Part shown: positions 7,528 through 62,385 of the stretch, one piece after another
Layout of the letters: each line of letters begins with the position of its first letter
Numbering within the stretch: the first letter of the stretch is position 1
Assembly (NCBI GenBank): GCA_951406725.2
Contig: OX597838.1
Coordinates: forward strand, 23,374,001-23,438,000
Direction of reading: 5' to 3'
From: Octopus vulgaris
Taxonomy: Eukaryota
DNA length: 64,000 nucleotides
Made by a program: the position numbers and the translations under genes
Notes under the pieces: generated by a model
Seen by the model: only the letters and a program-made list of their open reading frames with translations
Database searches by the model: none
Told to the model about the DNA's origin: nothing

Positions 7528-7910
7528 GTGGAGGCGCAATGGCCCAGTGGTTAGGGCAGCGGACTCGCGGTCCTAGGATCACGGTTTCGATTCCCAGACC
7601 GGGCGTTGTGAGTGTTTATCGAGCGAAGACACCTAAAGCTCCATGAGGCTCCAGCAGGGGATGGTGGTGATCCCTGCTGTACTCTTTCACCACAACTTTC
7701 TCTCACTCTTACTTCCTGTTTCTGTTGTGCCTGTATTTCAAAGGGGCCAGCCTTGTCACTCTCTGTGTCACGCTGAATATCCCCGAGAAGTACGTTAACG
7801 GTGCACACGTGTCTGTGGAGTGCTCAGCCACTTACACATTAATTTCACGAGCAGGCTGTTCCGTTGATTCGGATCAACCGGAACCCTCGTCGTCGTAACC
7901 GACAGAGTGC
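7528..7910 (+). mobile_element. tRNA-derived SINE (family C), full length; related copies near 3720-4016, 19856-20050(-), 20862-21235(-), 44584-44963(-)
   Basis: A-box TGGCCCAGTGG, B-box-like GTTTCGATTCC; 12-bp TSD TTCCTTATCTGA at 7516-7527 and 7911-7922. Confidence 0.85.
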
Positions 7911-8259
7911 TTCCTTATCTGAAGCGTCGGCCATGAGGGCAATACGTTAGAGTAACAAAAAAAAAAAAAATGATGAGGAAGGTATTAAGCGGTCGTGAGA
8001 TGCACTAAAAATAAACAGCTAAATCGCACGCGCACAAAAACTGGTGGCAGGGGTTGCATAATTGTATGAATTCCCATGAATAGAAGATAGATTCGTAAAA
8101 TTTTTCTGAAAATTCCAAAAAATAAAAATAAAGAGTCATGAGTGCGGTTGTTGTATGGATTGCTTAAACCAGAATTCCGCCGAAAACTCAATATACTGGC
8201 TATTGAGTCCCGCAACCGGTCACAAAGGCACCTAGTTAACTATGCGGCTAATAGCTATT

Positions 8260-8815
8260 CTTTTCTATTGCAGGCACAAGGCCTGAAATTTTGGGGAGGG
8301 AGCCAGTCGATTAGATCGACCCCAGTGCGTAACTGGTACTTAATTTATTGACCCCGAAAGGATGAAGGGCAAAGTCGACTTCAGCGGAATTTGAACTCAG
8401 AACGTAACGGCAGACGAAATGCTGTTAAGCATTTCGCCCAGCGTGCTAATGTTTCTTATTTCTTTATTGCCCACGGGGGGCTAAGCACAGAGAGGACAAA
8501 CACGAACAGACAAAGAGATTAAGTCGATTACATCGATCCCAGTGCGTAACTGGTACTTATTTAATCGACCCCGAAAGGATGAAGGGCAAAGTCGACCTCG
8601 GCGGAATTTGAACTCAGAACATAAAGACAGACGAAATACCTATTTCTTTACTGCCCACAAGGGGCTAAACACAGAGAGGACAAACAAGTACAGACTAACG
8701 GATTAAGTCGATTATATCGACCAAGTGCGTAACGATGAAAGGCAAAGTCGACCTCAGCGGAATTTGCACTCAGAACGTAACGGTGTGCTAACGTTTCTGC
8801 CAGCTCGCCACCTTC
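8260..8815 (-). mobile_element. Nested array of three family-B SINE units
   Basis: Repeated core gcctttcatcctttcggggtcgata...taccagttacgcactggg; Tx1-like tails join SINE head sequence at 8456/8457 and 8640/8641. Confidence 0.85.
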
Positions 8816-9055
8816 GCAGGTAATATCTATTGCGGCGAGGTGGCAGAAACGTTAGCACGCTGGGCGAAATACGTAGCCGTATTTCGTCTGCCGCACATGT
8901 GTTCATGGTAAGAATTGCTGTTTCTTGGTGTTAATATTGTTAATAACTGTTGTTTCTTGTTAAACTGTTGAATAACTTAACTGTTGGAGTTTTCAATTGA
9001 AAACACTTAGTGCTTGTGGTAGCACGCGTTGTTCATTTCCCCTTTGGGGGGAAGA

Positions 9056-10584
9056 ATGTCGTCTAGCATGGAGCCTACCGTTGGAGCAGAAATACTTGTT
9101 TCTCCTGTTGAGAGGAGGAAATACATGTCTGGCGAGGAGCCAACTACAGACAAGGAAATAGGGGTTTCCCCCGCTACAAGAAGGAATAGCAGAGAGGATA
9201 ATATATTTGATATTTTTGGAGATGTGTCTGAGAGCTCGTCAGAACTTTCACCAGAAGAGTTTCCGACTTTGCCAGAGAACAAAGGCATTGTGTCGAAGAG
9301 AATAATTGATGTGCCTAGCATCCAGATAGAACCAAAAAATGGAAAAAAAAGTTTTGCGTTGGCTGCTGGGGGTGGAACCCAGATACTGTCGACGAATAAA
9401 AGCGAAATTATGAAATACAGCAAAATGATGGAAATAACTGACAACGGTGTGAAAATTGAACCTCCGCAAAAGTTATTACAGGAAGAAAAGCAAAAAACAA
9501 TAATTTTCAAAACATATTGTCTACAAAAAAGAAAAATTGAAAGAATGTCAGAAGAGAAAATAGAAAAGTGCTTAAAGCCAATATTGGGCGACGTAGTATT
9601 TCTGAGAAGAGGAAAAAAATTCGGAACGGTGGAAGTAAGGTTCACCAATAAAGAAATAGCACACAAGAACTCAGTTGAAACGTTGAAAACGAACGACGTG
9701 GAGTTAATCCCCTATTATATGGGGATGAGGACGTCGCGAATAAAAATTACAAGGGTCCCGCCAGAGGTCGAACCTATGTGGTTGTTGGCGGCAGTCCTAA
9801 TCAAAGAGGTAGAAAAAATTACTCTCCTCCAGGCTACCGCTACGGAAAACCCACGCTGGGATGGTCAAACAATTAATCTTCTCATTCAAGCGGACCCTAA
9901 AATAATTCAAACAATTCCTGAGACAATTGAGGTAGGGGAGGAGAACCTCGTGGTGTTTGTTGAGGGCCGAAAACCTTGATGTTTTTTATGTGGTCAATTA
10001 GGCCACATTCGAAGGAACTGCAAGGAAAATGAAGAAGAGGAGGAAGAGGAGAAAAAGACAAAGAGGAAGAAGATAAAGAAGAAACAGATGAGAAAAAAAC
10101 AACAAACAAAAGAAAAATACAACCAGCAACCCAGCCGAGAGCGGCGACTACTACAGAACAACGACCAAAAAAGACTGCCAGAAGAGAAAAAGAAGAAAAA
10201 GGCATAATAGCCGTATACACTAAAGATACTGAGCTCATGAGAGACATTCAACTCATAAAGACTGTAAAAAAAATTGATAACCTTTCAGAGGAATTTATCA
10301 ATTACGACATATATGAAGTCTCAAATAAGACTTATAGAATTCTACAAAATAAGTACAGAAAGACTGTATCTTCATTGAGATTAGATTTTAACAAGTCGAT
10401 ATTTCATGGATTACCAGCTCCGATCCCGCGAGAAAAGGAAAAGGTGGAGATTCCCCCTCCACCTGATAATTCTGTGTCGGTGGTGAGACGGGATTTTGAC
10501 AAATCTATTTCCCAAGACCGTCCACCTCCGACCCTGGATCAAAAAAAGGTGGAGGGTCCCCCTCCACCGGACAATCCTAATTAA
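9056..10584 (+). pseudogene. Tx1 ORF1 (gag-like, CCHC zinc knuckle), interrupted
   Basis: VFVEGRKP*CFLCGQLGHIRRNC: TGA at 9977-9979 (probably from CGA) immediately precedes CX2CX4HX4C; a frameshift in the Lys/Glu-rich tract leads into the 10237-10584 segment. Confidence 0.8.
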
Positions 10585-10595
10585 ACAGGTAAGTG

Positions 10596-13500
10596 ATGGC
10601 TATTCACATTGGTTGTTTAAATGTTCATGGCCTGTTGTCAAGCTGGAAGCAAGGACGCTTTCTGAATGACATCAGGTCAAGAAATTTGGATGTAATTGTT
10701 GCAACGGAAACCCGGGTGAAGGGGCCAAGAGATCTGCTCCCCCTCCTGAACGGCTACGAGAAATACGTTTCTCCGAGTCGGGCAGGAGGTGGGGGTGGGG
10801 TGTTGGTCCTACTAAAAAGAAACCGGGTAGCCGAGAAAAAGTTGACATTCAGTTGTGGCAAGACAATCAGGCTGGTCGCTATTTACGCACCAAACATTAT
10901 TGGCCCGCAAACTGAATATTTTCGTGGCCTAGGAAAGTTCCTAGCCACGTCGCATTCACTAGTAGTGTTAGGAGACTCTAATACAATATGTGCAGCACAC
11001 ACAGATTGTGTTGGCTCAAACTCGAACATGAACAGAAAATGTAACCCAGGCTTTCGGGATCTGCTAAGTCAATTTCAGCTAGCAGATCCATATAGGTTGG
11101 AGCACCCGAACACTCCACAGTGGACGTGGTCAAATAGTGACGGGTCTACCAGAACATATCTAGATAGGATTTTAATTAGAGAAAAAGATAAGTCCATAGT
11201 TGAGTGTCCACAGTTTTTTCTAGTCAGCTACAGTGACCACAAGATGGTTACCTGTAAACTGACGGTAGATAAGTTGCATAGACAGGGATCTGGCTACTGG
11301 AAACTCAATACGTCCCTTTTGGCGATTGAGGAGTACAGAAAGCGGATCAAGATGTTAATACAGAGGGCATTAACAGGTACCATCATTAATAACAAATGGT
11401 GGTACGCCCTAAAAAGAGCCATCAAATATGAGTCTATTAGGTTTAGCATAAGTTTAGCTAAGAAGGGACGTAAAATAGGAGATGGTCTAGTTAAGGAACT
11501 AGAAGAAGCCTGGAGGACTGGTAATACAGACCAAGCGAGGGTGAAAAGACTGGAGTTAAACCAACATCTTGAAGCCCACCACATGGGAAGTATTACCAGA
11601 ACTAAGTTACGTGCAATGGGAAGTGAAGGAATCAAAGCCGCTGGATGGGCCCGAGTGGTGGAAGCTCGGCAAGGAAATAGTTCCTCTATTCGGTCTTTGA
11701 CGAATCAAAATGGTGTCTTGGTAAACGAACCCGAGAAAATGTGTGAGGTCTTTCGGGAGTACTTCGCCCAGCTGTTCGGGGGTGACGGCGGTCCTGGTGG
11801 TGGGAGAGCCCTCGAGGACTTTCTTACCGGGCTGCCGTGCCTCTCGGGGTCGGATGCGGAGTCTTGCGAAGAGCCAATCACACCTGAGGAGGTGATGGAG
11901 GCTTTGGCCGATTGTAAAGCGGGTAAGTCGCCGGGACTTGATGGTCTTACGTACGAGCTATATAAATGTATGCCAGACTTGTTCGGGCAACTACTGACTG
12001 ACGTGTACGCGAACTGGAAACAGAATGGGTTTATTCCCAGATCTGTGCGCCGGGGAGTAGTGACGTTGGTCAGAAAGGACCCGAATAAGGGGGACGTTCT
12101 AGAGAATTTCAGGCCCATCACTCTGTTAAACGCAGAAGTGAAGATTTTGGCCAAGGTTCTAGCAAAAAGGTTGGCGCGTGTCGCGAATGGTATAGTCGGA
12201 GAGGCACAGACATGTGCCATCCCAGGCAGAACCATTCAGGATACCCTCCATCTTATTCGCTATACCATAGAGAGGGTTGGTAATAAATCTGGCAAAGGTG
12301 GGGCATTGGTGCATTTGGACCAGTCTAAAGCTTTTGATAGGGTTGACCATCGATACCTAGCGACTGTACTTGCGCGGTTTGGCCTGGGTCTTGGCTTCCT
12401 CAGGTGGTTTATCGCTTTGTACCACAACATTGACTCGATAGTTCGGGTGAACGGTTTCCTCTCGAAGCCGTTCTGCATCAGACGCTCGGTTCGTCAAGGA
12501 TGTCCGCTTTCACCACTTTTGTATGTGATGGCTCTCGAGCCATTACTGCAAAGGTTGAGTGGCATCCCGAGAGAACCAGGACTAGAGGAGTTTGTTGCGG
12601 CTTTCGCGGATGATATCACTATCAGTGTAACCACAGTAGCACGCCCACGTGAAGTAGGTAAGACTATTGAGGCTTACGAGGAGGTAGCAAGAGCATAGAT
12701 TAACCGGGAAAAGTCGGTCGGCTTGCAGCTCGGCACCTGGGTTAGCAAGTCGATGCCTGCGCTGGACGGAGGGACCGGTTAAGTTGCTGGGAGTCTGGTT
12801 TGGACCAGGCCTCCAGATAGAGAAGAACTGGACGGAGGTATTGAGCAGGGTGGCTGCAGTAGTCAAGACCTGGTCTTGGCGGTGGCTATCCCTGAAAGGG
12901 AGGGCGGATGTGGCCAATGTGTTTATCGCATCGGTCATTACCTACCGCCTGACCGACGTGCCCTGTCCGGATTCGTGGTTGATCAGGTTGGAGAGACAGC
13001 TCTTTCGCTTTTTGTGGAAGGGCAGGTCGCCACTTGTGAAACGCTCTGTCTGCTGTCAAAAGCCTTTAAAGGGAGGTTTAGAGATGCCTTGGTTAATGAT
13101 GCGCAGACATGCGTTGAGGTTGAGGCACCTCTGGATTCTCCTGGATAGTGAACAGGTGTGGTCTCCGCTAGCCAGACAAATGTTCCCTGAGTTCAAGAGT
13201 TTTGCGAACAGGAAGCCTGGTGATCTCGTAGACCGAGGTCGAGTGAGTGGCATAAAGAGTGCCGTAAGCCCCTCTTGCTGTTCCGGCGCTCAGGCAACGC
13301 CAGCGGTGGGGGTTCCACACGGATTTTATATAGTGGGTTGGTAGAGTCTGAATGTGACGATGGCCTGGGGTCGACTCTAGGTCTCGGATTTATTCAACTG
13401 GACAGCTTGTTTAATCGTACATTCGGGTTGAGAACGTTGGACAACTTCCAAAAGTCCTTAACCTGGCAATGCTACAGAGGTGCCTTGCCCGTTTGGGATA

Positions 13501-13936
13501 AGCTCGCAAGACATGGTAAACGTCAGTCGCCGACCTGTCCAAGATGCGGGGGTACAGGGAAACCGTCCCTCACGCTATTGTTCAGTGTCCGGAGACAACT
13601 GAAATGTTGGCTTATGCTGAACATCTGTTGTCCGGCGAAGGAAGAGTACGGCTGTCGACTGAGTCAATTATAAAAATTGACCCACCGGGAGTTCTAACGA
13701 ACGATGGTAAGAATTGTTTTCTCACGGTTGTAGCAATAGCAAAAGAGGCAGTATGGAAGACTGGGATAAAAGGAATTAAGACAGGCAACTTTATCTCTGG
13801 TGACAATTTACGATCCTTTTTTTCTTTTCATTTGAAAAGGAAACTGTGGCTGGAGAAGAGGTGTCTGTCAGAGTGTACGTTCCAAAAGAGATGGAAGTAT
13901 GTTGCACGAGTGTTGTGCGTGCAAGGAACCGTGTGA
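10596..13936 (+). pseudogene. Tx1 ORF2 (apurinic-like endonuclease + reverse transcriptase + CCHC)
   Basis: GCLNVHGL, ATETR, VLGDSN, YLDRIL, YSDHK, GYWKLNTSLL, KSPGLDG, NFRPITLLN, LDQSKAFDRVDH, VRQGCPLSP, FADD (12603); stop at 12696-12698 and later frameshifts; CPRC..ETVPHAIVQCP. Confidence 0.92.
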
Positions 13937-14181
13937 AATGACGAGGGGGAAAAAAAAGGAAAAATAAAAAGGTATCAGCGGTAGATCGGGACTTGTGGGA
14001 TCGGAGCGTAACTTGATCATCGCTTCATTTGTATTGTTTTTGTACTGTGTATTCCATTCGATTTTTATGTATTGTATTTTATTTTTGAAGTCACATTTAT
14101 GTAAAATCATATCGATTCACTGATCCCATCAGTTGTACTGTCCATATCTATGTTTGGCCCCCGGTGGGCAATAAAGAAATT

Positions 14182-14734
14182 CGTATTTCGTCTGCCGTTA
14201 CGTTGTGAGTCCAAATTCCACCGAGGTCCACTTTGCCTTTCATCCTTTCGGGGTCGATAAATTAAGTACCAGTTACGCACTGGGGTCGATGTAATCAACT
14301 TAATACCTATGTCTGTCCTTGTTTGTCTCCTCTATGTTTAGCCCCTTGTGGGTAATAAAGAAATACGTATTTCGTCTGCCATTATGTTCTGAGTTCAAAT
14401 TACGCCGAGGTCGAATTTGCCTTTCATCCTTTCGGGGTCGATAAATTAAGTACCAGTTACGCACTGGGGTCGATCTAATCGACTTAATCCGTTTGTCTGT
14501 CCTTGTTTGTCCCCTCTATATTTGACCCCTTGTGGGTAATAAAGAAATATGTATTTCGTCTGCCATTATGTTCTGAGTTCAAATTCCGCCGAGGTCGACT
14601 TTGCCTTTCATCCTTTCGGGGGTCGATAAATTAAGTACCAGTTACGCACTGGGGTCGATGTAATCGACTTAATCCTTTTGTCTGTCCTTGTTTGTCCCCT
14701 CTATGTTTAGCCCCTTGTGGGCAATAAAGAAATA
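14182..14734 (+). repeat. Three tandem ~184-bp family-B SINE units, each beginning at the Tx1 target sequence
   Basis: Units 14182-14365, 14366-14549 and 14550-14734 each start (C/T)GTATTTCGTCTGCC and end GTGGG(T/C)AATAAAGAAATA. Confidence 0.93.
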
Positions 14735-14832
14735 AATATCTATTACGGCCATGCAGAACGAAGAGATGAAAAAAAAAAAAAATCCGTGCCAGGGGCAGCT
14801 ACTCTGCATTTACTCATTTCATCGTTCACATC

Positions 14833-15151: not shown

Positions 15152-15570
15152 GGCAATCTTTCGTCTCTAGTAGACCTTTCCGTCGATTTCCGTAAAAAAA
15201 TTTTTTTTTTTTTTACATATGGGCTTGCGGGAACTTTTGAAGTAATGAGAGCGAAAGAGACTAAGAGAAAGCGATTGTATGACGAGGGAAATTCTTTTGA
15301 AGTTACCGTGCATGGAAAGCATTGATGTACATACATGTGTGTGTGTTTGATGGGGTGTAGGAGACAGTATGTTGTGTAAGTGAAGTGCTTCTGTTAGTAT
15401 GTGTGAAGTGACAGAGTAATGTGTGAAAGAAAGAGATAACTGAAATTTTTTACTCGGTGTATGTGTATATGTATGTATATTACTTCAAAAGTTCCCGCAA
15501 GCCCATATGTAAAAAAAAAAAAAATTTTACGGAAATCGACGGAAAGGTCTACTAGAGACGAAAGATCGCC
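15152..15570. mobile_element. MITE with ~95-bp TIRs and GG termini (Merlin-like), copy 1
   Basis: GGCAATCTTTCGTCTCTAGTAGACC...GGTCTACTAGAGACGAAAGATCGCC; flanks TTCTTTTC / TTGTTTTC (8 bp, one mismatch). Confidence 0.85.
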
Positions 15571-20302: not shown

Positions 20303-22079
20303 GTATGCATACAGTCTTAATTATCCTTTTCTACTCTGGGCACAAGGCCCAAAATTTTGGGGGAGGGTGTTAGTCGATTAGATCGATCCCGGTATGCAAC
20401 TGGTACTTAATTTATCAACCCTGAAAGGATGAAAGGCAAAGTCAACCTTGGCCGAATTTGAACTCAGAACGTAAAGACAGACGAAATACTGCTAAGCATT
20501 TCACCTGGCATGCTAACGTTTCTTATTTCTTTATTGCCCACAGGGACTAAACACCCGGTGTGCTAACGTTTCTGCCAGCTTGCCACCTTATACAGTCTTA
20601 ATTATGTCTGTCTAAACTTTACTATGTATATTTGTGGTTTTACCATCTCTTTTTCTCTATACCTTCTGCTTCCACTAAAGGTAGGTTAGGACAGTCTGCT
20701 TTTGTGAAAGCTGTTGTGTATGCAATAATGGCCAATTCATTTCCTTAATGATAGGTGCCTGTATGACTGTGTGGTTAAGAGGCTTGCTTCTCTACTATGT
20801 GGTCCTCAGTTCAATCTCATTGCACAGCCCCTTGGACAAGTGTCTTCTTATATAACATGGCCCTCTGTTGATTATGATGACAAGGGTTCCAGTTGATCTG
20901 ATTGACAGAACAGCTTGCTTGTGAACTTAACGTGCAAGTGGCTGAGCACTCCTCAGACATGTGTACCCTTAACGTAGTCCTCGGGGAGATTCAGGGTGAC
21001 ACAGAGTGTAACAAGGCCGGCCCCTTTGAAATACAGGTACAAGAGAAACAGGAAGAAAGAATGAGAGAAAACTGTGGTGAAAGAACTCAGCAGGATTTAC
21101 CACCACCTCCTGCTGGAGCCTCGTGGAGCTTTAGATGTTTTCGCTCAATACTCACAATGCTTGGTCTGGGAATTGAAACTGCGATCCTACAACTACAAGT
21201 TCACTGCCCTAACCACTAGGCCATTGCGTCTCCACATCTTCTTATGTAGCTCTAAGCTGATTGAAGTCTTGTGAGTGGAAATTGAAAGATACCTGACCTG
21301 TGTGTGTGTGTGTTTAAAGTCCTTGTGACTTGGCAGTTCAACAAAAGAGACTGATAGAATAAGTACGAGGCTTAAAAAAGATAGCTATATATATGTATGT
21401 GTTTGTGTGTGTGTGTACATATATATATGTATACATACATACATATATATGTGTATGTATATACCATATTTAAATGTGTATAAGAAACCCTTTTTTGTCA
21501 AAAGTTAGGTTAAAAATGGCTACAATAGCCTGTGTTCATTTTGAAGTTGCTAACTGCATATTGTCCCATACAGTCCACTCAGCTGGCAAAAATGAACAGG
21601 AACTGTATTGCAAACAGGGCCATTGCTAAGCTCCTCAACCCCAGCAGTCACAGGGGGCTTCTGTAGTTGAGGGGGGCACCATGTTATGATGAAAGTATGT
21701 TGATGAGTCATCTATTTACTTTGGTTAAGAATTAAAACTATCCATGTTAACTGAAAATTTCAAGAAGTAAAATGGGAATACATTGTACTTGCAAAAGTTC
21801 TTGTAAATGTATTACATTGTACCACGAACGTGTACCAGACTTTGTGAATTGTCAATGATGTCTATCGAACACGAACTTAGCTCTTAGCTTGAATATTCTG
21901 AACTGATCGATGATTTTGCAAAGCAAAAAGTGCCCCGTGTTTGTCTTTGAAAGTTCCCTGGATTATAAATGTGCTCTTTTGTTCATATCTGGAAGTTTGT
22001 AATAGACCTAAATAAATTTAACTTGTTGTACTTTTAAAGCTGTTCTTTGGGATAACGTGAAGTATTGGGATAACGTGAA

Positions 22080-33446: not shown

Positions 33447-34243
33447 TAATAATAATGATAATGATTCATTTTATTTTTTATTGCCAACAGGGTTCGTTCA
33501 TCTGTACAAAAAAAACGTAGAATGTACAAAGTTTTATAAAACCAAGGAATGGGGCAAAGACATAAAATATACAAAAAGGAATTAAATTTTTATTTTTTTA
33601 ACATACACGAACAGAATGGCTGTGTGGTAAAAAGTTTGCTTCCCAATTACGTAGTTCTGGGTTCAGTCCCACTGCATGGCAGCTTAGACAGTTGGGCAAG
33701 TGTCTCCTACTATAGGACGTTGTATATATGTGTGTTTGTGTTTGTGTGTGCGCATGTGTGTGCATGTGTCTTTGCATCCATGTTTGCCCTCCACCACTGC
33801 TTGACAAACTGGTGTTGGTGTGTTTACGTTCCTGTAACTTAACAGTTTGGCAAAAGAGACCGATAGAATAAGTATCAAGCTTGGAAACACAAAATAAGTC
33901 CCGAGGTCGATTTATTTGGCTAAAATCCACCAAAGCAGTGCTCCAGCCTGGCCACAGTTTAATAACTGAAACAAGTAAAAGATAAAGATAGTATGATACA
34001 TTCATCAAAACAGAATTCACTTCATGGTTTCTGTATTAATTTCAAATTTTGGCACAAGGCCAGCAATTTGGGGGAGAGTGTGAGACGATTACATCAACCC
34101 CAGTACTCTACTGGTACTTATTTTATTGACCCCCAAAAGGATGAAAGGCAAAGTTGACTTCGAAACAGTTTGAGCTCAGAACGTAATGACTGTTGAAGTG
34201 CCGTTAAGCATTTTGCTAACCAGCTCACCACCTTAATAATAAT

Positions 34244-34274
<31 letters not shown>

Positions 34275-34662
34275 TTAATAATAATAATAATATTAATAAT
34301 AATAATGATAAAAATAATAATGATAATAATAATATTAATAATAATAATAATGATAAATTTTTCTACTAAATGCACAAGGCCTGAAATTTTGGGGGATGGG
34401 ACTAATCGATTACATTGACCACAGTGTTTCACTGGTATTTAATTTATCGACCATGAAAGGATGAAAGGCAAAGTCGACCTCAGTGGAATTTGAACTCGGA
34501 ACCCACAAAAGGATGAAATGCTGCTAAGCATTTTGCTTGGAATGCTAATGATTCTGCCAGATTGCTGCCTTAATAATAATAATAATAATAATAATGATAA
34601 TAATATTTCGTTTTGGGATTTGGTTTGCAAGATTCTTTATGTGAGTTTGTGTGTGGAAGCAT

Positions 34663-37410: not shown

Positions 37411-39589
37411 GTAAGTGGTATCTACTTTTGTTATTGTTTGGTGTTTCTTCGTTAATTTTCATAAACGAGATAGAACTACTTTCGGTTCTCTCCCACCCCT
37501 ATGTCTTGCATCGACAAATTCCTATAAAATTTCAATGTGCTCAATATTAACCGACGTCTGCTTCGGGTGGATCCCTCGGTATATCTTAAATAAAACCACT
37601 GCATACGTGCATATATATGTATATATATATATATAATACTTGCATGTGCGTGTGTATAGTTAAGGTTATTTTATTAATTTATCAACGCACTGATATTCAT
37701 AATTAATTCACAGACCGTCGAGGTGTGTTGGTGCTGGGCGTGTTACCTTATTTAATTATTTTCGTAAGCACGAAAAGAAAGAAATCCATACACGTTAATA
37801 TAGAACAGTTCTTAACCTTGGCACAAGGCCAAATGTCTGCGGTAAGCGTGTGTACACGATTGAATTGACTTCAAGGCTTTAATTATTTTTATTTTATTTT
37901 ATCGACCCCCAAAATGATAAAAGGCGAAGTAGATACCGGTCGAATTGGAACTCAGAATTGCTACTGAATGATAATAATAATACTTTCTCTTTTTGGCATA
38001 AGGCCTGGAATTTGATGGGAAGGGGTTAGTCGATTATATTGACTTTATAGTGCAACTGATACTTATTTTATCGACCCCGAAAGGAAGAAATGCAAAGTCA
38101 ACCACGGCGGAATTTAACCTTAGAACGTGAAGACGGACGAAATGCCGCTAAGCATTTATATCGGCGTGCTTAGCAATTTTGCCAGCTCGCCGCCTTAATA
38201 ATTAATGATTTCAAATTGTAGTACTGGGCCAGCAATTTCGGTGGAGGGTGCAAGTCGATTACATCGACTCAAGTACTCAACTGGTACTTATTTTATCGGC
38301 TTCGAAAGGATGAGAGGCAAAGTCGACCACGGCGGAATTTAAACTCAGAATGTGAAGACGGACCAAATACCTATTTCTTTACTACCCACAAGGGGCTAAA
38401 CACAGAGAGGACAAACAAGGACAGACAAACGGATTAAGTCGATTATATCGACACCAGTACGTAACTGGTACTTATTTAATCGACCCCGAAAGGATGAAAG
38501 GCAAAGTCGACCTCGGCAGAATTTGAACTCAGAACGTAGCGGCAGACGAAGTACCGCTAAGCATTCGCCCGTTTCTGCCAGCTCGCCACCTTAATAATGA
38601 TGATAATAACAATAATAATAATAATAATCCCCACTGCCACAGGCACAAGACCTGAAATATTGGGAGAGAGGTCTCGACTCCGAAAGTATGAAAGGTTAAG
38701 TTGACATTGCCAGGATCCGAATTCAGAGCAAAGCAGTTTTTTTTTTTCTGATGCCCTGTCGATGCCATTGATCTCAGCACTTGGCTGGTGTTTTATGCTA
38801 TTGACCCTGTAAGGATTAACGACAAAGTTAACCTCGGTTGGGATTACCGCTAAGCACTTTGTCCGCAGAACGATTGCACCAAAGTACCAACCCTTTTCTA
38901 AACGAAGACAAAATACTTTAAAATTGGTTGCTTAATCGATCGCAGGTATTTCACTGGGGTTAGTTAAATCAACACCAGTATTTGACTAGTACTTTATTTT
39001 ATCGATTTTGGAAGGGTGAATGACAAAATTGACGGCGCGATTTGAACTTTGAATATAAAGAACCTAGAAATACCCCTAAGCGGTTTTCCGACTCTAAACG
39101 ATTTTGCGAATGCATTACCCTAAGTAATAGTGGTTTCTAATTTATAAACACTGCTAGTAATTTTTAAGGGGCTGGCGCTAATCAATTAATTAATTCGATC
39201 TCAGTTCATGGCTGGTACTGTATTTAGCGGAGTTTTGCAATAGCTTTCGGAGAACCAAAAGCGTAAGGAATTGTGTGGATTTTCGTTCTTTCCATAATAT
39301 TTTTTTTAGTATTTCTGTATTTCATACAACGGGAGTCACGATTCTGAAAGAATCTTTTTCTCTAAATATTTCGATTTTTTTCTCTCTTTTCTCTTCACTG
39401 CTCCTCAATACCGCACTGTTTTCCTTCCACATGAGGTAGTGATAGCTATTCCAAAAACTCCGTAGAATTTGAATTCAAAACGTAATTGTCTGAATAAATA
39501 TTGCATGAGATTTTCGTCTGATGATCCAACTTCAACCAGGGCCCAAGTCGTTGGGGGGATAATTCAAAGACGAAATATAAAGGAAAGCT

Positions 39590-40014
39590 GGCAATTTTTC
39601 GTCTCTAGTAGACCTTTCCGTCGATTTCCGTAAAAAATTTTTTTTTTATTTTACATATGGGCTTGCGGGAACTTTTGAAGTAATGAGAGCGAAAGAGACT
39701 AAGAGAAAGCGATTGTATGACGAGGGAAGTTCTTTTGAAGTTACCGTGCATGGGAGCATTGATGGACATGTGTGTGTGTGTGTGTTTGATGGGGTGTGGG
39801 AGACAGACAGTATGTTGTGTAAGTGAAGTGCTTCTGTTAGTGTGTGTGAAGAGACAGAGTAATGTGTGAAAGAAAGAGATAACTGAAATTTTTTACTCGG
39901 TGTATGTGTATATGTATGTATATTACTTCAAAAGTTCCCGCAAGCCCATATGTAAAAAAAAAAAATTTTTTTACGGAAATCGACGGAAAGGTCTACTAGA
40001 GACGAAAGATCGCC
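39590..40014. mobile_element. MITE with ~95-bp TIRs (Merlin-like), copy 2
   Basis: Near-identical to 15152-15570; perfect 8-bp TSD GGAAAGCT (39582-39589, 40015-40022). Confidence 0.92.
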
Positions 40015-44423: not shown

Positions 44424-44961
44424 ATGCAATTGCTACACCAAAGACTTGTATCACATTATGAAAGGTTTGAGAAAAAACATTTGGTAGTGTTTATAATGGT
44501 AGGTAAACCGAGTATCACTGGGAAAGTATGTTTGTAAATCCTCACATTTATCAAGTATTCACCCTGAATTTATATATATCCTTAGCACTCCGTCGGTTAC
44601 GACGATGAGGGTTCCGGTTGATCCAAATCAACGGAACAGCCTGCTCGTGAAATTAACGTGTAAGTGGCTGAGCATTCCACAGACACGTGTACCCTTAACG
44701 TAGTTCTTGGGGATATTCAGCGTGACACAGAGAGTGACAAGGCCGGCCCTTTGAAATACAGGTACAACAGAAACAGGAAGTAAGAGTGAGAGAAAGTTGT
44801 GGTGAAAGAGTACAGCAGGGATCACCACCATCCCCTGCCGGAGCCTTGTGGAGCTTGTAGGTGTTTTCGCTCAATAAACACTCACAACGCCCGGTCTGGG
44901 AATCGAAACTGCGATCTTATGACAGTGAGTCCACTGCCCTAACCACTGGGCCATTGCGCCT

Positions 44962-45079
<118 letters not shown>

Positions 45080-49594: not shown

Positions 49595-49927
49595 GTGCTG
49601 GTAACATATTGAATGTCTGCATCTGTTTAAGATATTTACGTTGATTTAGAACGTTCTGGCATCGGTACATATGGTAATACAATATATGCATGGTTTCAAT
49701 AAAATGGGGGGGAGGGGAATAAATTAAAGATGATAATTATAATTTTTTTTCTACTCTAGGCAAAATTACATTGACCCCAGCGCATAACTAGTACTCATTT
49801 CATTGATCCCCACCAAGAAGAATGAAAGGCAAAGACCTCAGTGGAATTTGAACACAGAATGTAGCAGCAGATGAAATACGACTAATCATTTTGCCCAGTG
49901 TGCTAACGATTCTGTCAGCTCGCCGCC

Positions 49928-49963
<36 letters not shown>

Positions 49964-49985
49964 TTCAACTGGTACTTATTTTAAC

Positions 49986-50560
49986 CCCAGGAGGATGAAA
50001 GATAAAGTTGCAGCAGAATTTGAACTCAGAATGTAAAGACAGATGAAAGACCACCAAGCATTTTCCCTGGCATGCTAATAATAATAATAATGATAATAAT
50101 AATAATAATGATAATGGTTTTAAATTTTGCCACAAGGGCTGCAATTTGGGGGGGAAGGGATAAGTCAATTACATCGACCCCAGGAGGATGAAAGATAAAG
50201 TCGACTGCAGCAGAATTTGAACTCAGAATGTAAAGACAGATGAAAGACCACCAAGCATTTTCCCTGGCATGCTAATAATAATAATAAAGATAATGGTTTT
50301 AAATTTTGCCACAAGGGCTACAATTTTAGGGGAGGGGATAAGTCAATTACATCGACCCCAGGAGGATGAAAGATAAAGTCGACTGCAGCAGAATTTGAAC
50401 TCAGAATGTAAAGACAGATGAAAGACCACCAAGCATTTTCCCTGGCATGCTAATAATAATAATAATAATGATAATGGTTTTAAATTTTGCCACAAGGGCT
50501 ACAATTTTAGGGGAGGGGATAAGTCAATTACATCAACCCCAATGTTCAACTGGTACTTAT
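49986..50560. repeat. Three tandem ~180-190-bp units built from family-B SINE pieces and (AAT)n
   Basis: cccaggaggatgaaagataaagt...gcatgctaataat...gccacaagggct repeated three times with shared private variants. Confidence 0.9.
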
Positions 50561-51620: not shown

Positions 51621-51991
51621 TCTTTGGAATGGGGTTCAGAAGTATGCTTCGAAATATCAGAGCATCAAACTGTAGGGAGTGACAGATGGGGTGAAATAAC
51701 ATCTGTTAAACATCCAGACATACATACAATCATCATACACTGCTTAACATGCGCATACATACACATACAGACACACATATGTACATGCAACAAAACTGTT
51801 AAATGTATGCATACATGGGCTAGACATAAGCGTTCCCATACACACTAACCATAGACTGTCAAATGCACACATGTAGAACAGGATGTTAAACACATGCATG
51901 CACAATGATATACCCATGCACCATGGACTGTTGGATGCATTAGAATTAATCACACACACCCACAGACATCCTAACCACATGGTTCCAGATT

Positions 51992-52226
51992 GATAAGGTG
52001 GTGAGCTGGCAGAACCGTTAGCACGCCGGGCGAAATGCGTAGCCGTATTTCGTCTACCGCTACGTTCTGAGTTCAAATATCGCCGAGTCGACTTTGCCTT
52101 TCATCCTTTCGGGGTCGATAAATTAAGTACCAGTTACCCACTGGGGTCGATATAATCGACTTAATCCGTTTGTATGTCCTTGTTTGTCCCCTCTGTGTTT
52201 AGCCCCTTGTGGGTAGTAAAGAAATA
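51992..52226 (+). mobile_element. Full-length family-B SINE with Tx1-like tail, inserted in the head of a family-A SINE
   Basis: A-box-like TGGCAGAACCG, B-box-like GAGTTCAAAT; 11-bp TSD GGTTCCAGATT (51981-51991, 52227-52237). Confidence 0.9.
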
Positions 52227-53426
52227 GGTTCCAGATTCATTTCCACTGCATGTCACCTTGGGCAAGTTTCTTCTGCTATAGCTTCGTGCTGTCTAAAGCC
52301 TTGTTAGTTGATTGGGTAGGCGGAAACTGAGAGAAGCCTGTTGTGTATATATGTGTGTGTGCATGTGTCTTGGTGTATGCGTTTATCCTGCCACCACTGC
52401 TTAACCCTCCACACACACACACACACATGCAGCATTGATACGCACCACAGACTGTTAAATACACACGCATACACACATGCTCCATATCGTTCTGGATAAA
52501 TTGACTAATTTAGATAAACTGTTATGGACTAAATTGTATTGAACAAAATGGAATGCACACAAATTGTGACCGACAAACCAACCTAGATTCGTGTGTGTTT
52601 GTGTGTGGGTATGTGTGTGTGTGTGCATGTGTATATGTATGTGTGTGCACGTGTATATGTATGTATGTGTGTGTGTGTGTGTGTATATGTGCTTGTGTAA
52701 GGCGTAGTATGGTTGAATGGTTAAGAAGCACAGCTGTTTTGCATATTAGTCACACTGTGTTCTGCTTGGTTTTTGTTGAGCGTAACTGTGTCTGTTGAAT
52801 GTAGATGGAAACTGAAAGAAGCCCGTTGTGTGTCTGTGTTTGCCCCTCCCCCATCACCACTTGACAACCAATGTTGCTGTATTTACCTCTGTGTAACTTA
52901 GCAGTTTGGCAAAAGAAACCAAGAGAACAAGTCCTGGGTTAAAAAAAAAAAATATAGGTTCTAGATCACCCCAGGACTTATTTTTTTAAGCCTGATACTT
53001 ATTCTGTCGGTTCCTTTCGCCGAATTGCTAAGTTATGAGGTGCATAAGTGCACCAAAATTAGTTGGCAAGTGGTGGTGGTGGTGGGGCAAACATAAGTGT
53101 GCGCGCACACACACACACAATGGGCTCCTGTTGGTTTCCATCTACCAAATCCACCCACAAGACTTTGGTCAGCCCAAGGTGCCATGCAGTGGGACTGAAC
53201 CCAGAACCTTGTGGTTGGAAAGCAAGTTTCTTACCGCACAGCCGCGCCTGCTCCTTCAAAAACCTATCTCTAAAATTTCATTAAAAAAAGATGTTATTAT
53301 GAAAGTTAACGAGAAACAAAGGGGTGGCTCTAAATTTTAAATTATACTAAATATTTCACATATATTTATATATTTCAAAAACATAATTATAATATATTAA
53401 TTATTATTATTATTTTGTTTTTACAG

Positions 53427-62166: not shown

Positions 62167-62385
62167 CTCACCTTCTTCTGTCTCCTCCCTCGCACCTTCT
62201 CCTGTCTCCTCCCTCGCACCTTCTCCTGTCTCCTCCCTCTCACCTTCTTCTGTCTCCTCCCTCGCACCTTCTCTTGTTTCCTCCCTCTCACCTTCTTCTG
62301 TCTCCTCCCTCGCACCTTCTCTTGTCTCCTCCCTCGCACCTTCTCTTGTTTCCTCCCTTGCACCTTCTCCTGTCTCCTCCCTCAT
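62167..62385. repeat. 24-bp pyrimidine-rich minisatellite abutting the gap
   Basis: About 9 units of CTCGCACCTTCTCCTGTCTCCTCC. Confidence 0.92.

Follow-up and report, generated by a model that had tools for sequence, protein, structure and literature searches.

LINEs with target specificity normally find their safe harbours in host repeats or among other transposons. In crocodilians, tandem copies of SINEU-3 sandwich a target duplication and have been interpreted as sequential insertions, and a preference of Tx1 elements for multicopy target sequence has been recorded in over 20% of flanks, according to the accessible text (PMC4494074). R2 RNAs carrying 28S sequence have been postulated to anneal to the upstream target, giving uniform 5' junctions (PMC3774820), and annealing via target sequence on the RNA has been proposed for some R1 elements (PMC2718515). 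The usual sign of a partnership between a SINE and a LINE is a shared 3' end (PMC4824008). The octopus annotations name the tRNA-derived SINEs OK, OR1 and OR2 and an L1-Tx1 class of LINEs, and their accessible portions mention neither a target preference nor self-insertion for any of them (PMC4824008, PMC4758252, PMC13282606, PMC8967140).

In this study we examined a tandem array of head-less SINE units from Octopus vulgaris within a window of 64,000 nucleotides (contig OX597838.1, positions 23,374,001 to 23,438,000 of the forward strand), to which all coordinates refer. Our preferred interpretation, with a probability of roughly 0.6, is that a SINE targets its own copies, that its partner LINE inserts at the same site, and that the heads of the additional units are missing as a result of cDNA pairing.

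The SINE family and its tail

The window consists of AT-rich, microsatellite-rich animal DNA in which two abundant SINE families cover about 11%. The family of interest, numbered here after a full-length dispersed copy at 51995-52227 (the ruler), is 233 nt long and is represented by 32 blast pieces within the window, with target-site duplications at three insertions (14/15, 13/14 and 19/22 identical). A and B box-like motifs were seen by eye in its head against the consensus. ARAGORN found no tRNA genes; a search of Rfam over 8200-9100 returned no tRNA and two sub-threshold microRNA-type matches. The SINE probably corresponds to the octopus tRNA-derived families OK/OR1/OR2, and the LINE probably to the L1-Tx1 class of the octopus annotations. 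By eye, no likeness was found between the SINE and the 66-bp Meta domain of MetaSINE in the bivalve consensus sequences, as far as these are given in the available supplement (PMC4824008). A 12-bp hairpin is predicted in the SINE RNA, with nt 34-45 paired with nt 50-61 (z -2.1; 4 of 200 shuffles as stable); its loop would end at nt 49, mainly as an RNA structure with G-U pairs.

Members of the family differ in their 3' ends. In one subfamily the tail is of the LINE type, the final 34 nt of the LINE described below (3' end at 14147-14181, + strand) being identical to the SINE tail of the third array unit at 31 of 34 positions, a score reached in none of 2000 shuffles. A metagenome scan with this tail gave 119 loci, none of which matched the SINE beyond 24 nt, as expected of chance matches. 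Older-tailed members of the same family at 34040-34605, 37985-38630 and 49760-49965 (- strand) follow runs of TAT/TAA microsatellite and are often arranged head to tail, their heads complete. Such a placement suggests a second partner LINE targeting the microsatellite, together with a tail swap within the SINE family; this second partner is presumably Dong/R4-like.

Other repeats of the window include a third family of interspersed repeats, about 380 bp long and tRNA-like at its beginning (7528-7910, 20860-21237 and 44584-44963), a MITE-like element of about 420 bp with terminal inverted repeats of about 95 bp, present in two copies 95% alike (15152-15570 and 39590-40014), and two 24-bp minisatellites of 16.3 and 9.0 copies (2437-2827 and 62169-62383).

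Anatomy of the compound locus

The array forms the 3' part of a compound locus at 8822-14749, which comprises, in order, an outer duplication, a head, a target, a LINE, three target-body units and the outer duplication again. The two copies of the outer duplication (8822-8836 and 14735-14749, both on the + strand) are identical at 14 of 15 positions, the last 5 nt of the upstream copy overlapping the head. The single SINE head (8832-8877, +), corresponding to nt 4-49 and thus to the 5' half of the tRNA-like region, aligns to nt 6-66 of the ruler at 90%. It is followed by the first target copy (8878-8893, +; SINE nt 50-65), which is the upstream duplication of the LINE and is identical at 16/16 positions to 14182-14197; this 16-mer occurs only at these two places in the window.

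The LINE itself (8894-14181, +; 5288 bp) is full-length and broken, and is identified by its ORFs and by the Pfam domains RVT_1 and Exo_endo_phos. Its ORF1 region (9023-10021, +) has 318 open codons up to a stop, beyond which the same frame encodes a CCHC zinc knuckle. At the end of this region, 10376-10578 contains a direct repeat of about 98 bp that has diverged (71%). The ORF2 region (10593-13936, +) is in pieces, with the endonuclease and reverse transcriptase at 10593-12698 and C-terminal pieces in other frames, the last of which is 48% identical to the C terminus of P0012. The best solved relative of ORF2 is human L1 ORF2p (E 2.5e-50), R2 scoring E 1.2e-18; with two ORFs, an APE endonuclease ahead of the reverse transcriptase in ORF2, and L1 as the closest relative, the element has the features of the L1 group. 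Among named proteins, its nearest cephalopod relative is an Argonauta hians protein (48% identical) and its top-scoring match a turtle protein (38%), and name look-ups of the LINE proteins returned generic endonuclease or reverse transcriptase labels only. A zinc knuckle in ORF1 is associated with the Tx1 clade. The LINE appears to be Tx1-like, a label that rests on this knuckle and on the target preference; the 15 proteins looked up included no named Tx1 sequence.

Downstream of the LINE, Tandem Repeats Finder reports an array at 14147-14734 with a period of 184, 3.2 copies, 92% matches and a score of 992, in which the surplus 0.2 copy is the 3' end of the LINE. The first unit (U1, 14182-14365, +) consists of target, body and LINE-type tail without a head; the second (U2, 14366-14549, +) is like the third at unit positions 16 and 20 and like the first at 172; the third (U3, 14550-14734, +) is the body of the original insertion, its tail abutting the outer duplication. 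All three begin at SINE nt 50 and span nt 50-232 of the ruler. An earlier note on this DNA had described head-less SINE units of 184 bp, and both the period and the ruler alignment confirm them; its estimate of about 45 nt lacking from the 5' end of each unit becomes 49 nt, of which 46 nt of head are present at the locus, and the scattered substitutions that it had noticed between units amount to 9 (U2-U3), 13 (U1-U3) and 17 (U1-U2) differences over 184 sites. Its claim that units start at the target sequence holds as well, nt 50 being the site at which the LINE inserted with its 16/16 duplication. The proposed organisation of one head followed by several bodies was right as to the single head, which lies outside the array at 8832-8893 (with its target), with the 5288-bp LINE before U1.

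Recurrent insertion within the SINE head

A pattern search recovered nine LINE-type tails in the window, against 0.01 expected. In five of them, at three loci, the base after the tail is SINE nt 50 (LINE, U1, U2, 8640 and 38371), and in two more, at two loci, it is nt 17 (8456 and 20523). The remaining two end outside this SINE family: one at 52227, in the second SINE family, and the other in the outer insertion of the compound locus, 7 bp upstream of the 5' end of a neighbouring SINE. Divided by element, nt 50 accounts for 1/1 LINE copies, a single LINE in the window being readable with both flanks, and for 4/8 SINE tails. When the array junctions are counted once, three of seven events share one SINE nucleotide and strand; for at least three of seven, the chance under random insertion with 25 copies assumed is about 6e-8. 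The use of nt 17 on two occasions runs against the idea, put forward in the earlier note, of one fixed boundary position. Fixed boundaries cannot in any case separate the models, because crossover between units keeps boundaries once a single insertion has set them.

Heads were kept at both insertions outside the SINE family (52.0 kb and the outer insertion, 2/2) and are single at three clear sites within it. The junctions at nt 50 comprise three that are seamless (U1, U2 and 38 kb), one that is ambiguous (8.8 kb) and one head-duplicated joint found in contigs (see below). An especially informative independent case lies at 38215-38592 (-), where one head is followed by a LINE-tailed unit and then by an older-tailed body from nt 50. 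Duplication of one unit cannot produce such a chimera, in which a young LINE-tailed unit and an older-tailed body stand behind the same head. Between its two target copies there are 5 differences over 16 sites, with a Poisson P of 0.02-0.12 if a plain duplication had made them identical at the start; the upstream copy, which carries the letters of LINE-tailed copies, looks donor-derived.

A second compound, at 8256-8814 (-), contains two LINE-tailed units joined at nt 50 and then an older-tailed copy that resumes at nt 17; in its head, nt 34 runs directly into nt 66 across a 3-nt microhomology. The corresponding 31-nt gap at 8785-8784 (-), covering SINE nt 35-65, coincides closely with the predicted 12-bp hairpin, which is thereby lost from the head. 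Also especially informative is the locus at 20322-20592 (-), where a tail-only insertion of 30 nt interrupts an older-tailed copy at nt 17, with a duplication of 20-22 nt (19/22 identical), and is, judged by its sequence, an ordinary truncated retro-insertion within a SINE head. Finally, a full-length LINE-tailed copy with its head lies in the second SINE family at 51981-52240 (+), with a duplication of 13/14.

No sequence motif common to the four kinds of insertion site was found. A DNA hairpin at the nick was considered as a general rule and rejected, since perfect pairs number nine in the array head, two in the 52-kb head, four at the foreign SINE site and none at nt 17. All nine LINE-type tails end in, or at most 7 bp from, a tRNA-like SINE head; because they do so without a common motif, insertion targeting may follow RNA polymerase III complexes and not sequence.

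Relationships among the array units

By distance, the nearest neighbour of each unit lies within the array (3/3), although the ranges overlap (9-17 of 184 within the array, 14-25 to dispersed copies), and the tree is star-like with U3 very close to its centre (branch 0 to 0.008). In a whole-length tree of seven rows the array grouped in 14% of bootstrap trees, that is, it was not grouped; without the first 21 nt, the three units are set apart by a branch of weak support (74/84; grouped in 76% of bootstrap trees), and 32 of 500 label shuffles scored as low for array clustering. The expectation of the earlier note that array units should not cluster agrees with the whole-length tree, and is contradicted by the nearest neighbours and, weakly, by the shortened alignment. 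Beyond unit position 21, no variant was found that is shared by a pair of array units yet absent from all dispersed copies.

The strongest competitor of the preferred interpretation, which we consider distinctly less probable while taking it seriously, is that the array grew at the DNA level. A single insertion would have produced a dimer and unequal crossover would have added U2; or else the 34-nt tail of the LINE, located 184 bp before a matching SINE tail, would have seeded a one-unit duplication without any SINE self-insertion here. Crossover in a dimer of U1 and U3 should yield a mosaic of the kind seen in U2, which agrees with U3 at positions 16 and 20 and with U1 at 172; the mosaic, U3-like at its 5' end and U1-like at its 3' end, is explained equally well by insertion into the target of U3. 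Growth at the DNA level is further favoured by the weak clustering and by position 153, common to U1-U3 and the LINE tail and found in 0/4 dispersed copies (Fisher p 0.029), by the inclusion of the LINE tail in the array as counted by Tandem Repeats Finder, and by the precedent of head-truncated bivalve SINE arrays, which are ascribed to unequal recombination in the available text (PMC11481361). Against it, the tail of U1 is of the SINE type at all four LINE-diagnostic positions (159, 165, 166 and 184), and U1 and U3 differ at position 172, where U1 agrees with U2 and where both states occur among the dispersed copies. Both changes shared by U2 and U3 fall within 20 nt of the unit start, where a target duplication could reach (P about 0.012 if changes were spread evenly), a value weakened because both lie at CpG sites. 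The junctions at 38 kb and 8.6 kb have no LINE upstream.

For comparison, a 178-bp tandem at 50090-50541 (-), built from an internally deleted older-tailed SINE variant, shows 5/177 differences between units and 24/99 from the ruler, and is by these values a SINE-derived tandem of DNA-level origin. The 14-kb array is unlike this plain duplication, but an old crossover would not look like it either. Of the earlier claim that each unit is a separate insertion, the identity of nt 50 as a true insertion site stands, whereas the mosaic structure of U2 and the weak clustering also fit unequal crossover; for the third unit, another insertion and unequal crossover in a dimer are about evenly matched.

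Junctions in public contigs

Contigs of four public runs with four different organism labels (X4, X3, X7 and X12; 136,499-317,098 contig records per run, with depth concentrated on the SINE) were aligned at 80% likeness to 8823-14365, a reference that ends at the tail. The contig tables give 15 of 1051 joints, 12 of 800 between-letter rows and 24 of 6342 loose ends, and their counts are incomplete and give no ratios. The LINE is covered in 30/30 bins in 4/4 runs and is therefore multi-copy over its whole length.

A tail-to-target joint, 14363->14184, was present in all four runs (at least 6, 6, 2 and 1 contigs in X4, X3, X7 and X12, respectively) and fixes the site within about 4 nt. The earlier equation of unit start with insertion site is thus borne out by these joints in 4/4 runs, by the LINE with a matching tail at the same nucleotide and by the loci at 8640 and 38371. 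Three of the 15 joints listed (of 1051) return from the tail end into the body; joints 14365->14206 and 14365->14230, among those listed, do not locate the site because they restart just past the private changes of U1. Another listed joint, 14314->14242, reaches a greater depth (1309 in X3, 947 in X4) than the tail-to-target joint and counts against fixed boundaries. This return joint over 14242-14314 corresponds to an internal duplication, or a satellite of about 75 bp of SINE body, elsewhere in the X3 and X4 genomes. Joints 14274->8832 and 14300->8833, likewise among those listed, reflect older-tailed copies arranged head to tail.

One of the 12 between-letter rows listed, out of 800, is joint 8893->8832, which carries the three missing letters of the head and has a depth of 193.8 in X3. 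Judged from its letters, it shows a full-length SINE inserted after a head and target, with the same duplication end as the LINE. Self-targeting is thereby supported, and the seamless form is not its sole outcome. The same joint is the two-headed intermediate of a further, rather less likely explanation, in which the inserting full-length SINE brings its head along (head-target-head-target-body-target-body) and recombination between the two copies later deletes one 65-bp head. Such a loss would account equally well for the donor-like upstream target at 38 kb, and R1 is reported to yield junctions with duplicated upstream sequence when top-strand cleavage is downstream, in the part of that study available (PMC2718515). 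Nevertheless, head-duplicated insertions number 0 among the four SINE junctions at nt 50 in the window, and we would not expect selective loss of a 65-bp repeat each time when longer repeats of 184 bp persist side by side at the locus.

It is improbable that multimers move as one piece, RNA polymerase III reading through tandem units so that a ready-made dimer or trimer is retrotransposed. Read-through of the head and U1-U2 could occur because they contain no run of four T (nor does the 52-kb copy; U3 has one), and such movement would explain subfamily letters common within the array; it nonetheless needs a source array made by another route, and every compound in the window has a structure of its own. 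Least likely of all is that reverse transcription stalls at the predicted RNA hairpin, head-less copies being 5' truncations at a hot spot that coincides with the duplication end: the stability of the hairpin and the microhomology joint of the 8.8-kb copy are in its favour, but plain truncation leaves identical target copies, contrary to the five differences at 38 kb, and both foreign-site insertions passed the hairpin and kept their heads.

A model for self-targeted insertion

Self-targeted insertion of the SINE is well supported by the sequence data, because the LINE lies in the same target, nt 50 and nt 17 recur as insertion points, and the 38-kb chimera stands behind one head. We propose that the L1-group (Tx1-like) LINE nicks preferentially within the tRNA-like head of the SINE, mostly before nt 50; that its endonuclease makes the nick is very probable. 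The SINE subfamily would be copied by the LINE machinery because it carries the 3' end of the LINE, and would consequently insert into its own copies. At the compound locus, a full-length SINE initially inserted at a non-SINE site, an event recorded by the outer duplication. As the array and two other loci suggest, a second SINE would then have entered at nt 50, producing head-target-body-target-body, and a third unit would have been added by insertion or by unequal crossover in the dimer, U2 having an even chance of an origin by insertion. Finally, the LINE inserted in the first target, as its duplication records, and pushed the head 5.3 kb away.

To account for the missing heads, the cDNA would include the same 16-20 nt with which the DNA upstream of the break ends, pair with them and prime the second strand, as postulated for R2 and for some R1 elements. 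Insertions into foreign targets would keep their heads because no such pairing with the upstream break is available. In R2, the postulated annealing depends on RNA with target sequence upstream of the junction, and the full-length SINE does contain nt 1-65 as read here. The earlier note had proposed sealing guided by homology, which remains plausible: heads are kept at foreign targets and single in SINE targets, as it predicted, but a head-duplicated self-insertion exists and later head loss gives the same product. Between cDNA pairing and priming at the upstream break, on the one hand, and later loss of one head, on the other, we give the former about even odds.

More tentatively, and on balance doubtfully, the system could form a closed loop, in which a SINE with its partner's target in its own head turns each copy into a new landing site, and cDNA pairing rebuilds one promoter head per array, overwriting older heads with young sequence. 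Through such a loop, if true, retrotransposition would seed satellites and would also join SINE subfamilies into chimeras.

A LINE harboured by its own parasite SINE would have a target pool that grows with SINE activity, and its insertions would be kept off genes. If the model is true, the genome offers thousands of natural events bearing on the 5' junction and second-strand formation of non-LTR elements. Since the same RNA inserts at its own head, with long target homology, and also at foreign sites that lack such homology, the proportion of one-headed and two-headed insertions at each age bears directly on the annealing model. Furthermore, molluscan SINE arrays with truncated heads may have arisen otherwise than by recombination.

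Comparison with known systems

No report of a SINE with its partner LINE's target in its own head, or of a self-targeting octopus SINE, was found in the accessible literature (including PMC10886601 and PMC3531059); the search lay outside the sequences of Repbase, Dfam and SINEBase, where a prior annotation is possible. In the portions available of the reports compared here, the nearest parallel is SINEU-3 with the Tx1-Mar LINEs of crocodilians (PMC4494074), in which a SINE and a LINE of the Tx1 type both prefer one site within another repeat, as here. In crocodilians, insertion is into a separate element, Mariner-N4, and a 3' sequence common to SINE and LINE is not noted in the accessible text, whereas the octopus SINE has the target in its own head, a 3' end shared with the LINE, and head-less units (PMC4494074).

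Tandem R1 arrays in 28S genes resemble the octopus case in that re-insertion into a regenerated target builds the array (PMC2718515). Yet R1 and R2 are autonomous, reside in rDNA and have their target sequence co-transcribed, while the octopus LINE belongs to the L1 group and the target sequence comes from the SINE's own body (PMC2718515, PMC3774820).

Among molluscs, the HCD-SINE arrays of bivalves include one type of multimer in which the first head is complete and the units after it are head-truncated, similar to the octopus array (PMC11481361). Their inner units are also 3'-truncated and unequal recombination is invoked; the octopus units, by contrast, keep the full LINE-type tail and have the partner LINE at the same site (PMC11481361). 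The SINE-derived satellites of squamates are, like the octopus array, tandem repeats made from part of a SINE, but they form long arrays through DNA-level duplication and concerted evolution, unlike the three units bounded here by tail end and insertion site; the 178-bp tandem at 50.1-50.5 kb fits this class better than the 14-kb array does (PMC10702118).

A target preference shared by a SINE and a Tx1 LINE, tandem re-insertion, and head-truncated SINE arrays in molluscs are thus already known; what appears to be new in the octopus is the location of the partner LINE's target in the SINE's own head.
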